From sequence record ON528725: DNA of 64,000 nt; one strand, written 5' to 3'. The translations under genes and the position numbers were made by a program. The notes under the pieces are model-generated. The model was not told the origin of the DNA. It ran no database searches and saw only the letters and a list, made by a program, of their open reading frames with translations. This stretch comes from Shigella phage ESh15. Numbering within the stretch: the stretch's first letter is position 1; each line of letters starts with the position of its first letter. Of the stretch, positions 8,356 through 46,143 are shown in pieces.

Positions 8356-8724
8356 TTAATTACCAATTGTATATTTTGCTTTCAAAGTCCAGTCATCTTT
8401 CTGTTTAAAAGAGATAACACGGAAGTTATTAGTCAGGCCAAACAGATCTTCACGAGCAGAGTCTTCAATAACAATTAATCCCCAGTCTTCAAGCAACTGA
8501 GCAATCGAATCACGTCGCTGATAGTCTTCACCATCAATATCAACCTGACGTCCGTCCATACGCAGCATTTCTTTAAAGTGGACGATGTAATATTTACCTT
8601 GCTTTTGGAGGATATGACAGGACTGATAAAGGATTTTATCCTTGTTATTAGCGATGCCCATACGGGTTAGAGTCTCTTTGACTTTCAGAAAATCTTCAGG
8701 GTTCTTCAATTTAATTTCAATCAT
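8356..8724 (-). CDS. regA: translational repressor RegA
   Basis: 122 aa from MIEIKLKNPEDFLKVKETLTRMGIANNKDK, near-identical in pattern to T4 RegA; ORF-track start at 8733 is probably over-extended. Confidence 0.9.
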   Translation of the reverse strand: MIEIKLKNPEDFLKVKETLTRMGIANNKDKILYQSCHILQKQGKYYIVHFKEMLRMDGRQVDIDGEDYQRRDSIAQLLEDWGLIVIEDSAREDLFGLTNNFRVISFKQKDDWTLKAKYTIGN

Positions 8725-41306: not shown

Positions 41307-41765
41307 TTATAGGAGGGTAGTGAGCACCTTATATAATGATTTGCCCATCACATATTCCCATTGAGAAGGTTTAATTAAAGCGAATGCATCAAATTCAGGA
41401 ATTTGTCGTCCGTCTGGGAATGTATGATAGGAATTACAAACACTGTTTCTGAATTGCTCGTGCTCTACAGGGATGGTATATAGGAACAGATGAATATTCT
41501 TATTGTCTGAGTAATGATGTTCACCTAGGTCTTTCAGGAAGGCAGGGTCATATTGTGTAAACCCAGTTTCTTCTTCGCATTCACGAATAGCGGCTTCGAT
41601 AGGAGATTCGCCGGGTTCGACACGGCCTTTAGGAATATCCCACCGATGAGCTAAAGAACCTTTAGGACGAGAACCAGTTACACGCCCCATGAATAACTCT
41701 TTATCTTTTGTCATGAAGATAATACCGGCTGATAGTTCTTTCACTTTATTTTTCTTACTCATCAT
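41307..41765 (-). CDS. nudE: Nudix hydrolase
   Basis: 152 aa; Nudix box GRVEPGESPIEAAIRECEEETG. Confidence 0.85.
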   Translation of the reverse strand: MMSKKNKVKELSAGIIFMTKDKELFMGRVTGSRPKGSLAHRWDIPKGRVEPGESPIEAAIRECEEETGFTQYDPAFLKDLGEHHYSDNKNIHLFLYTIPVEHEQFRNSVCNSYHTFPDGRQIPEFDAFALIKPSQWEYVMGKSLYKVLTTLL

Positions 41766-42006
41766 CTCGGTCCCATGATTTGGCCATTAATTCGGACATA
41801 AATTCTTCAATGCGCGTTTCTTTAGATGGACTTTCACTATTAGAGACCGCAAGTTTGTAATCTGCAATAGGACTGAACAAATCAAGGTCCATATTAAGAT
41901 CGTCTTTGATTTTTTCTTCTGACACATCTTTATCATATGTGTACAGATAACTATCACATGATTCTGATTTAATGTAAATTGCTATACTCATCTCAAATTC
42001 CTGCAT
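41755..42006 (-). CDS. hypothetical acidic protein
   Basis: 83 aa ORF. Confidence 0.4.
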   Translation of the reverse strand: MQEFEMSIAIYIKSESCDSYLYTYDKDVSEEKIKDDLNMDLDLFSPIADYKLAVSNSESPSKETRIEEFMSELMAKSWDRDDE

Positions 42007-43542: not shown

Positions 43543-44499
43543 TTATTTGAAAGGTTTTACCATATGGAAATTTTGTTTGAAACGTTTTACATAATCGTCA
43601 TGTCCTAAGCTTTGGTACATACTTACAACTTTGCTGTAGTTTTCCCAAGCGTATTCACGGAACCAGCCTGACGTGATTGAAGTACAGACCTTTTCAAGAG
43701 CCATCATAAAACTATCACGTGGATGGATTTTAAAGTCATTAGGAATCTGAGAACGTTCTAATGCTAGTACACATGATTCTTCGTATACACCGGCCAATTT
43801 GACCATTTCTGGTAATGATTCGAACTTCTCGCGTGAGGTCATGACTTCAGAACCATCTTTCATGTAAAACGTATAAGCAGGGCGGTCTGTTAGTGCAATG
43901 GCTTCGTGAATAGTATCATGATCGTATGTGTAGATGTCATCTTTAAAGAATGCGCTTTTAGAAGTGTCAAGAACCGGGTGAGCATAGTTCAATGTTTCTT
44001 TCTGGCGTTTAAGCATAATTTCAGTAAGTTCATCGTTCAGTGTAACACCTTTACCACGAAGATACTGAATATGGTTCATAGTCTTTAAAAAGAATGGATT
44101 ATTTTTCTTGAAACGATGAGACATCTTAATTGCAAGACACATCTCAGGAGTTGCCCAGTAAAACCCGTTCAAACGATCTTTAGTCAAATTTTTCTTGGCG
44201 TATTTTAAAAGGTCATAAGAAGACGTGAAATCTTCAGGAGTGAGTTCACCAACTAATTCACGGACATTAGTGATTGCCGGAACAATATATGCTTCAAAAT
44301 GAGTTTCGCGTCCATTATGGAAGCATTTGAAAACTTGGACATCAGGGTTATCTTGGTGAACATATACACCCATCATTTGATTTTTGAATGCATTCCAAGA
44401 ACCTTGGTCCGCAATAAAGTCCCAATCACTATTTTTGATAGCGCTAGAATCAATAAGGCCGTGATAGTGAAGTGCACGAGAACCAATAACTAACATCAT
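43543..44499 (-). CDS. hypothetical protein
   Basis: 318 aa ORF. Confidence 0.5.
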   Translation of the reverse strand: MMLVIGSRALHYHGLIDSSAIKNSDWDFIADQGSWNAFKNQMMGVYVHQDNPDVQVFKCFHNGRETHFEAYIVPAITNVRELVGELTPEDFTSSYDLLKYAKKNLTKDRLNGFYWATPEMCLAIKMSHRFKKNNPFFLKTMNHIQYLRGKGVTLNDELTEIMLKRQKETLNYAHPVLDTSKSAFFKDDIYTYDHDTIHEAIALTDRPAYTFYMKDGSEVMTSREKFESLPEMVKLAGVYEESCVLALERSQIPNDFKIHPRDSFMMALEKVCTSITSGWFREYAWENYSKVVSMYQSLGHDDYVKRFKQNFHMVKPFK

Positions 44500-44524: not shown

Positions 44525-44776
44525 TTAAATTTCACGACATGCGATATTATATTCATCCCAGAGGTCATCATGTGAAGCCTCTACCAATGGAACGATTGTA
44601 CCATTTATGTCTTCATTATAAGGACAAATTGTACAGTGCGCATCTTCGAATCGGATGCCTTTGTGTTCAGATTTTTTATAACGCATATCGAATATCTTTG
44701 CAAACTTTTCACGAGTAATAGTTTTAGCAACTACTTCGGTTCCGATACTTTCGTAATAAATCATTGTGGACTCCAT
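44525..44776 (-). CDS. hypothetical protein
   Basis: 83 aa ORF. Confidence 0.4.
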   Translation of the reverse strand: MESTMIYYESIGTEVVAKTITREKFAKIFDMRYKKSEHKGIRFEDAHCTICPYNEDINGTIVPLVEASHDDLWDEYNIACREI

Positions 44777-44827
44777 TTAATTTGATAGGACTACTATAAC
44801 ATAGCCCTATCTTGTTGTAAACTGTTT

Positions 44828-45025
44828 TTAGCAAGAATAACTAGATGATACCCAGCCTTGAACAGTAATACTATTATTTGATAACGAGATCGCGTCCTGG
44901 AGATTCAGACCTGCGTTATCTTCAATCCATAATGTAACTTCTTCGCGTTCTTCTGTTGCAATTTGGAACAGGTTTTCCAGAGCAGCTACTGCCGTACGTA
45001 CAGCACAATCTAATTCACGAGACAT
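44828..45025 (-). CDS. small protein, paralog family with C-terminal WVSSS..C
   Basis: 65 aa ending GWVSSSYSC. Confidence 0.45.
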   Translation of the reverse strand: MSRELDCAVRTAVAALENLFQIATEEREEVTLWIEDNAGLNLQDAISLSNNSITVQGWVSSSYSC

Positions 45026-45034
45026 ATTGTTTCC

Positions 45035-45307
45035 TTAGCAAGTGTGAGAAGATGCAACCCAACCGCCATCTTCAAGGCTCAGGTTGTAGTCGTATTGGTA
45101 AACGTCAGCCCATTCAGCATAGCCGTTTTTTGTACAACGTTCAAGATCGGCTTTAAGATGTCCTGGTGAATGATAGGTTCCACCCATACCATAAGCTGGA
45201 TACAAGTCAAATGTTGTGTTTTGTTTATTGGCAATTTCTTTGGCTGCCTCAATAGCTGCATAGATTTTTGCTACGGCTTCAGCCAGTTCGGTTTGTTCTT
45301 TAGACAT
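45035..45307 (-). CDS. small protein, paralog family with C-terminal WVSSS..C
   Basis: 90 aa ending GGWVASSHTC. Confidence 0.45.
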   Translation of the reverse strand: MSKEQTELAEAVAKIYAAIEAAKEIANKQNTTFDLYPAYGMGGTYHSPGHLKADLERCTKNGYAEWADVYQYDYNLSLEDGGWVASSHTC

Positions 45308-45316
45308 AATGATTCC

Positions 45317-45622
45317 TTAGCACAATGCAGAAGACGAAACCCAAGCACCTTCAGTAATAACGTAACCATTACCTTCACGCTTAACGTCGCCACCATTATT
45401 TTCAATTTCATTTTTCATCCACTGGGATACGATTTCACCCTTAGGATAATAAGTACGACCGCTACCATAATCACCTACAGAAAATGATACAGCATATTGG
45501 TCTGCGATCTTTGTTGCTTCTTCTTCGATACGTTCAGCTTGATTCAGAAGTTTATAAATTGCATCTGAAGCGGATTTGGCATCATTAAACTCTGGCACTT
45601 TAATTTCAATAATCTTACTCAT
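45317..45622 (-). CDS. small protein, paralog family with C-terminal WVSSS..C
   Basis: 101 aa ending GAWVSSSALC. Confidence 0.45.
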   Translation of the reverse strand: MSKIIEIKVPEFNDAKSASDAIYKLLNQAERIEEEATKIADQYAVSFSVGDYGSGRTYYPKGEIVSQWMKNEIENNGGDVKREGNGYVITEGAWVSSSALC

Positions 45623-45720
45623 TTTCTACATTCCTTAATAAAGTTTTCGATTGTTTCATTTTCACGTCTAGCTAGGAGTTCATTATAACTAATCATTTGA
45701 GAAGCGTAAACAGCATAAAT

Positions 45721-46143
45721 TCAGTTAAGGCTTTTGCATCTTATCTCCTTAACGAATTCCATGGCTTCATTGTATTCATACTTTTTAACAGCTTCATCAT
45801 ACTGAGCTTGGGCTTTTGCGCACTGAACTTTCCATTCTCTTAATCGGGCTCTGTGATGACGGCCTTGGTGCCAATATCCTGCCCAATTAATAGGCATTAA
45901 TAAAAACGGTACAATAAGTGGTGCGACGAACATTAATGAAAATGCTGCATCAGACGATATAACTTCACTAGAATCTAAAACAGCTCCTATAATCATAAAG
46001 ATTAAAAATGCTAAAGCTAAAATAGGACCAAACAACACCTCATTAGGAATTAATTTACGTTTGTATTCGTATGCCCAGGGCTTAATTGGCATGTACAGGG
46101 TTGGCTTTGACATATTCTCTACATTCCATAATAAATTGCTCAA
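45721..46143 (-). CDS. membrane protein
   Basis: 140 aa ORF; true start probably an internal Met (about 46092-46113) given overlap with upstream gene. Confidence 0.4.
   Translation of the reverse strand: MSNLLWNVENMSKPTLYMPIKPWAYEYKRKLIPNEVLFGPILALAFLIFMIIGAVLDSSEVISSDAAFSLMFVAPLIVPFLLMPINWAGYWHQGRHHRARLREWKVQCAKAQAQYDEAVKKYEYNEAMEFVKEIRCKSLN

Follow-up and report, generated by a model that had tools for sequence, protein, structure and literature searches.

Three adjacent small genes of Shigella phage ESh15 (ON528725), together with a predicted nucleotidyltransferase gene on the same strand, suggest a previously undescribed two-part enzyme–partner module, in which the small proteins form a family without recognisable relatives. 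We consider it probable that the small genes and the enzyme gene work together. The window (the whole stretch of DNA analysed, 64,000 nucleotides) belongs to an RB69-like T-even phage (Mosigvirus), and the 2.8 kb surrounding the trio is 97% identical to RB69, ESh27 and p000v. The initial annotation had described three adjacent genes of 65, 90 and 101 aa with a common C-terminal ending, and all three, with their C-termini, were confirmed on the minus strand as follows.

45317..45622, minus strand, Cys-tail paralog 3 ('type A'), 101 aa, C-terminus ...GAWVSSSALC
45035..45307, minus strand, Cys-tail paralog 2 ('type B'), 90 aa, C-terminus ...GGWVASSHTC
44828..45025, minus strand, Cys-tail paralog 1 (degenerate), 65 aa, C-terminus ...QGWVSSSYSC

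Paralog 3 has an N-terminal helix and a hairpin (F-S-V-G-D-Y-G-S-G-R-T-Y-Y-P) and corresponds to RB69ORF138c+139c, a pair split by a frameshift in the RB69 reference. The hairpin of paralog 2, the counterpart of RB69ORF137c, reads P-A-Y-G-M-G-G-T-Y-H. Paralog 1 (RB69ORF136c; phrog_4882) is the most degenerate of the trio, having kept the helix and the tail without the Y-G-x-G-x-T-Y hairpin; its orthologs in three other loci (L010, L022, L031) retain W-x-SSS-x-x-C. RB69ORF136c to 139c are 'hypothetical' in the RB69 annotation and carry no T4 gene names.

Pairwise BLASTP within the trio gave E values of 9e-6 (90 aa versus 101 aa), 2e-3 and 7e-4. The family HMM (188 sequences) detected paralogs 3, 2 and 1 at 1.9e-24, 1.3e-22 and 7.5e-4, respectively, and the phrog_899 profile matched paralog 3 (1.8e-22) and paralog 2 (2.2e-18). 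Judged by sequence, the three open reading frames (ORFs) are paralogs, and a chance match is ruled out. The G-x-W-V-[SA]-S-S-x-x-Cys tail is confined to these three ORFs in the 64-kb window, where, of 162 ORFs with 60 aa or more, 5 end in Cys, the trio included. Nothing above threshold was found for the trio in Pfam, NCBIfam or PADLOC, and the PHROGs entries in which it is placed (phrog_899 and phrog_4882) are both labelled 'unknown function', so the family is indeed as unfamiliar as it had first appeared. Matches of paralog 3 to Peptidase_S78_2 (E 0.0036; 17.8 bits, short of the cut-off of 24) and, weakly, to E217_Gp32 were dismissed as noise.

Homologs were collected by word-seeded searches (~55 clusters) and then by an exhaustive HMM search, which returned 648 clusters (50% identity) at E<=1e-3 and 93 at E<=1e-10, with nearly all matches extending to the last residue of 70-140-aa proteins. 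Cys was the final residue in 181 of the 194 family sequences retrieved, and these 181 kept Trp at -7 (179/181), Ser at -4 (180/181) and Ser at -3 (178/181) nearly without exception; Ser or Ala occupies position -5, and Gly predominates at -9/-8. The terminal Cys is thus conserved as proposed, and alignment of the homologs, which might have shown the tail similarity to be peculiar to the trio, shows instead that W, S and S are each kept in at least 178 of 181. The tail is the most conserved part of the protein, above the helix, which itself holds a conserved A-x-x-I-A-[DE] segment. A second motif, Y-G-x-G-x-x-[YFW], was seen in 176 of the 188 family sequences; YGMGGTY and YGSGRTY are the commonest of its Y-G-x-G-x-T-Y forms.

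This second motif defines subtypes, represented in the window by paralog 3 ('type A', GDYGSGRTYYP), paralog 2 ('type B', AYGMGGTY, the commonest subtype across the family) and the hairpin-less, degenerate paralog 1. Related phages contain a 'type C' (...GFWFSSSMSC) and a 'type D' with the W-x-S-S-(S)-C unit twice, once internal and once terminal; internal W-x-S-S-x-C repeats also occur in four homologs (P0075, P0138, P0143 and P0158). The distance from Ser-Ser to Cys varies from 0 to 3 residues across subtypes, with Cys nearly always last. Family proteins are ~65-110 aa long and acidic (median pI 4.4), and the terminal Cys is the sole Cys in about half of them. In some phages a single paralog carries a frameshift (RB69 ORF138c/139c and P0048), which indicates that individual copies are dispensable. 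The common architecture is an amphipathic N-terminal helix, the Y-G-x-G-x-T-Y beta-hairpin, a variable acidic/aromatic loop and the G-G-W-x-[S/A]-S-S-x-x-Cys-COOH end. When the family pattern was run against 185,579 bacterial and archaeal genomes, no relatives of the small proteins were found; the family is phage restricted, and the module occurs only in virulent phages. The initial annotation had been silent on the Y-G-x-G-x-T-Y motif, the size of the family, its phage-only spread and the adjoining nucleotidyltransferase gene.

The 101-aa protein was modelled with AF2 (31-sequence alignment; pLDDT 92) as a long helix (residues 15-43), the Y-G-x-G-x-T-Y hairpin, a short helix and three strands. 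The N-terminal helix first noted in all three proteins is borne out by this model for the longest of them. The predicted tail is a strand (93-96) plus one helical turn packed on the domain, unlike a free tail. The model has no fold similarity to MenA1 (8AN5) or AbiEi (6Y8Q), and the sequences are not similar either; it shares no fold with the phage nucleotide-signal sponges Tad1, Tad2, Acb2 and Acb4 and has no fold match to acyl carrier protein (ACP) or the ThiS/MoaD beta-grasp carriers.

The enzyme gene lies on the same strand as the trio, 329 bp downstream and beyond a further small ORF.

44525..44776, minus strand, intervening 83-aa ORF, phrog_3723, function unknown (profile match)
43543..44499, minus strand, partner gene, 318 aa, DUF7277+DUF7275, RB69ORF134c (Pfam and predicted fold)

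On the basis of its modelled structure, the 318-aa DUF7277+DUF7275 protein is a predicted Pol-beta-superfamily nucleotidyltransferase with a MenT/AbiEii/ANT(2'')-like fold. Its structural relatives are the MenT1 toxin (10.1), ANT(2'') (8.7), TglT/MenT3 (8.6) and MenT4 (7.9), with other nucleotidyltransferases, including LnuA, scoring lower than MenT4. Both the nucleotidyltransferase fold and the hG[GS] and [DE]x[DE] motifs that define Pol-beta enzymes were found: G6-S7 and D25-x-D27 (hG[GS] ... DxD signature) are invariant in the enzyme family, as are K125, H128, H194, D195, H198, E240, E241, E248 and R249 in both enzyme subfamilies. Because the catalytic residues are invariant across two subfamilies, the enzyme is probably active. 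The family comprises more than 2,200 clusters (90% identity) and is strongly conserved, with 45-76% identity between distant phages, and its members have a pI of 5.4-8, neither basic nor toxin-like. Pfam scans of 33 enzyme homologs (E<=5) returned DUF7275 and DUF7277 only and no nucleotidyltransferase family, which rules out membership of PF08843/DUF1814; identity with RlaP (PF10127) is likewise ruled out at the sequence level. RNA-repair genes lie near the enzyme gene in several loci (Rnl1 and PNKP in L003, RNA ligase 2 in L038, a kinase and a ligase in L039); the RB69 annotation shows none among the neighbours displayed for this region.

Loci were collected with the Cys-tail pattern from IMG/VR (28) and metagenomes (10), by exact look-up, and, in the reverse direction, by the enzyme from GenBank phages (12 loci). 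Every Cys-tail locus with enough flank (48/48) has an adjoining DUF7277+DUF7275 gene on the same strand; the four without the enzyme are contigs that end no more than a few hundred bases past the last Cys-tail gene. Conversely, 48 of 54 enzyme-gene loci have one or more Cys-tail genes on the strand of the enzyme, at gaps of -37 to 1303 bp. The syntenic lineages comprise Mosigvirus and other T4-like genera (Escherichia, Klebsiella, Enterobacter, Yersinia and Aeromonas phages, including CC2-like ones), Acinetobacter Lazarusvirus, Phapecoctavirus, jumbo phages of 360 kb and 371 kb, Pseudomonas Otagovirus, with up to five Cys-tail copies beside the enzyme, and Stenotrophomonas Menderavirus, in which the order is inverted and the array lies downstream of the enzyme. 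The genes abut in unrelated short contigs (gaps of 1 bp in L007, 16 bp in L033, 16 bp in L051, and 49 and -37 bp). Across 11 divergent loci, the Cys-tail and enzyme families are the sole gene families common to all, and the adjacency is kept in phages that have no other neighbouring genes in common. Much of the sample consists of related T4-like phages, independent support coming from ~8-10 truly divergent loci, and part of the synteny may reflect shared descent, not selection. These arrangements suggest that the Cys-tail array and the nucleotidyltransferase gene form a conserved module.

The other 6 of the 54 enzyme loci (Vibrio KVP40, Vibrio K460, Streptomyces Wakanda, Gordonia Yvonnetastic, Mycobacterium prophi86-1 and roseophage DSS3_PM1) lack a Cys-tail gene and carry one to three tandem copies of a different small family (phrog_8206/18295/13591; motifs GGEGxGxxYW and GWYAS[YF]xGG). 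The two small families were never seen together in an enzyme locus; with one or the other beside the enzyme, a small partner array appears in every enzyme locus examined. This suggests that the Cys-tail family is the enzyme's partner in the proteobacterial-phage branch. Over a short collinear stretch the two families resemble each other (G-x-G-x-x-Y ... G-W-x-[AS]-S), and the aligned Ser is the sole invariant Ser of the second family. Homology between them is not supported: hhalign aligns the GW-x-[AS]-S segments with a probability below 1% (E 0.07-0.34), which is not significant, and the similarity serves as no more than a lead.

The module resembles the pairing of a nucleotidyltransferase with a small partner in MenA-MenT and MntA-HepT, yet it lies outside those families. 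As in MenA-MenT and AbiEi-AbiEii (DUF1814 superfamily), the small protein is encoded directly upstream of the enzyme or abuts it, and, as with the MenA families, the partner family varies between enzyme branches. Unlike MenT and AbiEii, the phage enzyme has no sequence match to DUF1814/PF08843 or another nucleotidyltransferase Pfam family and possesses a DUF7275 domain that is long, helical and highly conserved; the Cys-tail proteins differ from MenA1 and AbiEi in fold, in forming arrays of one to five paralogs and in being limited to virulent phages. MntA-HepT (a type VII toxin-antitoxin) and GlnD-PII also set a Pol-beta-type nucleotidyltransferase beside a small protein, and the Cys-tail protein has invariant Tyr, Thr and Ser in the hairpin and near the C-terminus, but no HepT (HEPN) or PII homology was detected, and a terminal Cys is not a known feature of either system. 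RlaP (PF10127), an RNA-ligase-associated nucleotidyltransferase of phages and bacteria and likewise a phage Pol-beta-type enzyme, invites comparison through the RNA-repair genes near the DUF7275 gene in several loci. Damaged RNA 3' ends are reported to be extended by 1-2 nucleotides by RlaP (bioRxiv 10.64898/2025.12.29.696909). The window enzyme differs in having no PF10127 match, the RNA-repair linkage is found in few loci only, and the portions of the published accounts consulted do not mention a small-protein partner for RlaP.

Our preferred explanation, held tentatively, is that the tail of the small proteins engages the catalytic cleft of the enzyme, as acceptor or pseudo-substrate. The small proteins would be dedicated protein partners (substrates or regulators) of the nucleotidyltransferase. 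Their nucleophile-rich tail, with two invariant Ser and a terminal Cys offering a thiol and a free carboxylate, would dock in the cleft and there either accept a nucleotidyl group or, as a pseudo-substrate, gate the enzyme; the Cys thiolate and carboxylate could chelate the catalytic metal, and the divergent bodies of the one to five paralogs might confer differing downstream specificities. The only regions conserved among the divergent paralogs are the tail and the hairpin, with their nucleophiles Tyr, Thr, Tyr, Ser, Ser and Cys. Protein-targeting Pol-beta-fold enzymes modify hydroxyls of small partners: GlnD acts on a Tyr of PII and MntA on a Tyr of HepT. Control of MenT toxins falls to small, unrelated partners whose genes lie immediately upstream, and in the 7.4-kDa MenA1 a single helix suffices for that control (PMC11375011). 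The initial proposal that the tail serves a shared post-translational chemistry or as a recognition tag fits the W/S/S/C conservation, the terminal position and the enzyme linkage; any modification is putative.

If the tail does dock in the cleft, we lean slightly toward an acceptor over a plug, and the substrate or pseudo-substrate version is hard to separate from a regulatory one. A more specific version, in which the enzyme nucleotidylates the invariant tail (on Ser-Ser or the terminal Cys) of the diversified proteins to give conjugates, or an eliminated or rearranged tail, that act on host targets, we regard as doubtful; it would amount to a new phage-encoded post-translational modification system, its 'cassette' being a constant tail carried by variable bodies. 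Against the preferred explanation stand the AF2 packing of the tail on the domain, the apparently separate promoters of the trio and the enzyme gene and the unrelated 83-aa ORF that parts them, an enzyme that is neither basic nor toxin-like and has no nucleotidyltransferase Pfam match, and the frameshifting of single paralogs.

The small proteins could instead be antitoxin-like regulators whose N-terminal helix binds the enzyme and switches it off or on, the Cys tail serving for stability, for redox or metal sensing or as a degradation signal, outside the active site. The MenT1/3/4 toxins are the enzyme's closest structural relatives, a small acidic protein upstream of and abutting the enzyme follows the classic antitoxin-toxin order, and the helix carries the conserved A-x-x-I-A-[DE]. 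MenA1 acts on MenT1 by inducing auto-phosphorylation, and the swap of partner family between enzyme subfamilies recalls the unrelated MenA families (PMC11375011). Arrays of two to five anciently diverged paralogs would nonetheless be unexpected for an antitoxin; conservation peaks in the tail and not in the helix, the enzyme is not basic, and the genes are found in virulent phages only, the pattern scan having returned no bacterial toxin-antitoxin-like copies. We judge such regulators unlikely. We would also give a low probability to independent host-takeover or anti-defence proteins (an acidic nucleic-acid mimic, a small-molecule sponge or an oligomer bridged by metal through the terminal Cys, for example) that lie next to the enzyme gene through co-inheritance in an early-gene block. 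Small acidic products (pI ~4.4), early-promoter-like sites and a hypervariable early region would suit them, tandem diversification with occasional loss is typical of conflict genes, and, with only one Cys in about half of the members, metal or disulfide binding would need to be intermolecular. The adjacency, however, persists without other common neighbours and even with inverted order, and PADLOC, Pfam and NCBIfam hold no match for the trio that would mark it as such.

Ribosomally made precursors with a chemically processed tail are very improbable. The S-S-S-x-x-C-COOH ending resembles those of AviCys and lanthipeptide precursors, in which Cys is last, Ser(-3) to Cys(0) is the AviCys spacing and the motif is occasionally repeated internally; the W-x-S-S-x-C repeats of some homologs would then be multi-core-like. 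A lanthionine- or AviCys-like ring would form if Ser were dehydrated and then attacked by the C-terminal Cys, or self-cleavage at Ser-Ser would release a short Cys-ending peptide, and the nucleotidyltransferase might, speculatively, activate Ser for elimination. Yet the Cys-tail protein is ~90 aa and predicted to be compactly folded throughout, tail included, not divided into leader and core; its Ser-to-Cys spacing ranges from 0 to 3 residues between subtypes; and none of the known modifying enzymes (dehydratase, cyclase, HFCD flavoprotein/decarboxylase or radical-SAM) is encoded among the 8 neighbouring ORFs scanned in the window or in the L003-L007 neighbourhoods surveyed with Pfam. The same low standing applies to carrier proteins in which a persulfide, acyl or other group would ride on the thiol of the terminal Cys, a built-in swinging arm. 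Their size, acidity, invariant Ser-Ser with a terminal thiol, and adjoining nucleotidyltransferase recall small acidic acyl-carrier subunits, in which a Ser is loaded by a nucleotidyltransferase-type holo-synthase (CitX/MdcG), an argument that has analogy alone as its basis. Against it, the fold matches neither ACP nor the beta-grasp carriers, the proteins end in Cys and not in the Gly-Gly of ThiS/MoaD and combine a long helix with a small sheet, and no partner metabolic enzymes are conserved nearby in the 11 divergent loci. By analogy, RiPP-like, sulfur- or acyl-carrier, sponge and DNA-mimic functions may be conceived, with no positive support beyond that.

The arrangement of the locus adds detail to how the trio may be expressed. 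The junctions between paralogs are repeated as TGC TAA GGAA(T/A)CA(T/A)T ATG, i.e., Cys codon, stop, 9-nt spacer and start, and promoter-like sites lie on either side of the array.

45682..45710, minus strand, sigma-70 / T4-early-type promoter-like site, TTTACG-17-TATAAT (consensus match only)
45308-45316, minus strand, spacer GGAATCATT, matching the arrangement at 45026..45034
45026..45034, minus strand, 9-nt spacer GGAAACAAT separating paralogs 2 and 1 (read from the sequence)
44793..44821, minus strand, second early-type promoter-like site, TTTACA-17-TATAGT, with TG extension (consensus match only)

The TAA stop and the spacer together form TAAGGA, placing the stop codon inside the Shine-Dalgarno of the next gene, and the repetition of junctions with the stop inside the ribosome-binding site points to tandem duplication and translational coupling. 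The site at 45682..45710 lies directly past the stop of the upstream e.3-like gene and ~60 nt ahead of the first paralog, a position and orientation that suit the trio. The site at 44793..44821 separates the trio from the 83-aa ORF and the nucleotidyltransferase gene. The 83-aa ORF (phrog_3723) intervenes between array and enzyme gene in some T4-like lineages only and is for that reason probably not core to the module.

Searches for DUF7275, DUF7277 and the RB69 ORF names found no papers in the literature collection covered, and no functional annotation was found for the Cys-tail or the enzyme family; the lack of T4 gene names for the RB69 ORFs may explain how they escaped study. Both families occur widely among large virulent phages that infect Proteobacteria, with hosts including Escherichia, Klebsiella, Enterobacter, Acinetobacter, Aeromonas and Pseudomonas, and many of these phages are therapeutic candidates. 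The W-x-S-S-S-x-x-Cys end beside a MenT-like enzyme offers a sharp and cheaply testable hypothesis. Should the enzyme act on tRNA or other RNA ends like its structural relatives, the module would bear on the ways in which phages manipulate or repair the translation apparatus in conflicts with AbiE/MenT-type and anticodon-nuclease defences; should it modify the small proteins, viruses would be shown to have a new kind of protein modification.

Cys272 of the enzyme (KVCTSITSGWF), whose loss from the second-family-linked enzymes other than that of DSS3_PM1 is confounded by their overall divergence, is kept in all compared Cys-tail-linked enzymes and might pair with the terminal Cys of the small proteins.

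RNA-repair genes (T4-type RNA ligase 1, polynucleotide kinase-phosphatase or RNA ligase 2) were found within a few kilobases of the nucleotidyltransferase gene in several unrelated phages, a pattern similar to that of the RlaP nucleotidyltransferases (PF10127), which are linked with RNA ligases. Beside distant homologs of the enzyme, the adjoining Cys-tail family was replaced by a second small-protein family (phrog_8206/18295/13591; motifs GGEGxGxxYW and GWYAS[YF]xGG..DGPT.EV), encoded in one to three tandem copies in phages of Vibrio, Streptomyces, Gordonia, Mycobacterium, and roseobacter. The two families did not co-occur at any locus. Positions in the compared phage and metagenome loci (L) are as follows.

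L003:2689-5478, RNA-repair gene(s) near the nucleotidyltransferase
L038:1830-2810, RNA-repair gene, likewise
L039:45-917 and 8494-8573, RNA-repair genes, likewise
L038:5217-5609, second partner family
L039:4594-4893, second partner family
L040:4600-5420, second partner family
L041:3360-3656, second partner family
L054:4491-4856, second partner family
L056:4109-5204, second partner family

Two further small open reading frames (ORFs) lie near the module. One separates the Cys-tail array from the nucleotidyltransferase gene in only some T4-like lineages. The other encodes a small acidic protein of about 80 amino acids (...SES.D.Y...SW..D). Of 11 divergent loci, 5 have a member of this family close to the module, and in a 371-kb jumbo phage the Cys-tail genes directly follow it; the family is possibly a third, loosely associated module component.

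44525-44776, minus strand, 83-aa ORF (phrog_3723) with conserved R-F-E-[DE]-A-H-C
41755-42006, minus strand, acidic protein
L003:7741-8001, acidic protein
L031:7751-8014, acidic protein

The window lacks a further type of Cys-tail paralog, which has an internal motif copy (D-W-[LQ]-S-S-(S)-C-Y-G-E) and a spacer-less terminal one (W-x-x-S-S-C); the W-x-S-S-C-type motif thus acts like a short module, able to occupy an internal position.

L010:7024-7248, doubled-motif paralog
L018:6294-6527, doubled-motif paralog
L029:6250-6477, doubled-motif paralog
L052:2904-3122, doubled-motif paralog
L055:2913-3131, doubled-motif paralog

The family profile had a borderline match (E value, 0.042) to lacto-N-biose phosphorylase residues 647 to 704 (DYGKGRGVY ... 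AAWSSSNPEC), with both motifs collinear, involving residues 40 to 101 of the 101-aa protein (window 45317-45622); structure searching gave this match no support.

In the reference genome of RB69, a frameshift divides the ortholog of the 101-aa protein (ORF138c/ORF139c, L001:6320-6626), which ends in WVSSPALC, with Pro in place of Ser. P0048 (75 aa), from another phage, is a frameshifted form of the 90-aa paralog. Single Cys-tail copies therefore seem dispensable, unless these frameshifted records contain sequencing errors.

Upstream, an indel in the e.3/e.4 region sets window 45623-46143 apart from RB69 L001:6411-6982 and breaks their alignment into two pieces. The e.3-like ORF and first paralog overlap in RB69, unlike in the window, where a spacer of about 100 bp with a promoter-like site separates them. 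In the related record JK45, the e.4 homolog is labeled "sulfurtransferase" (record label only).
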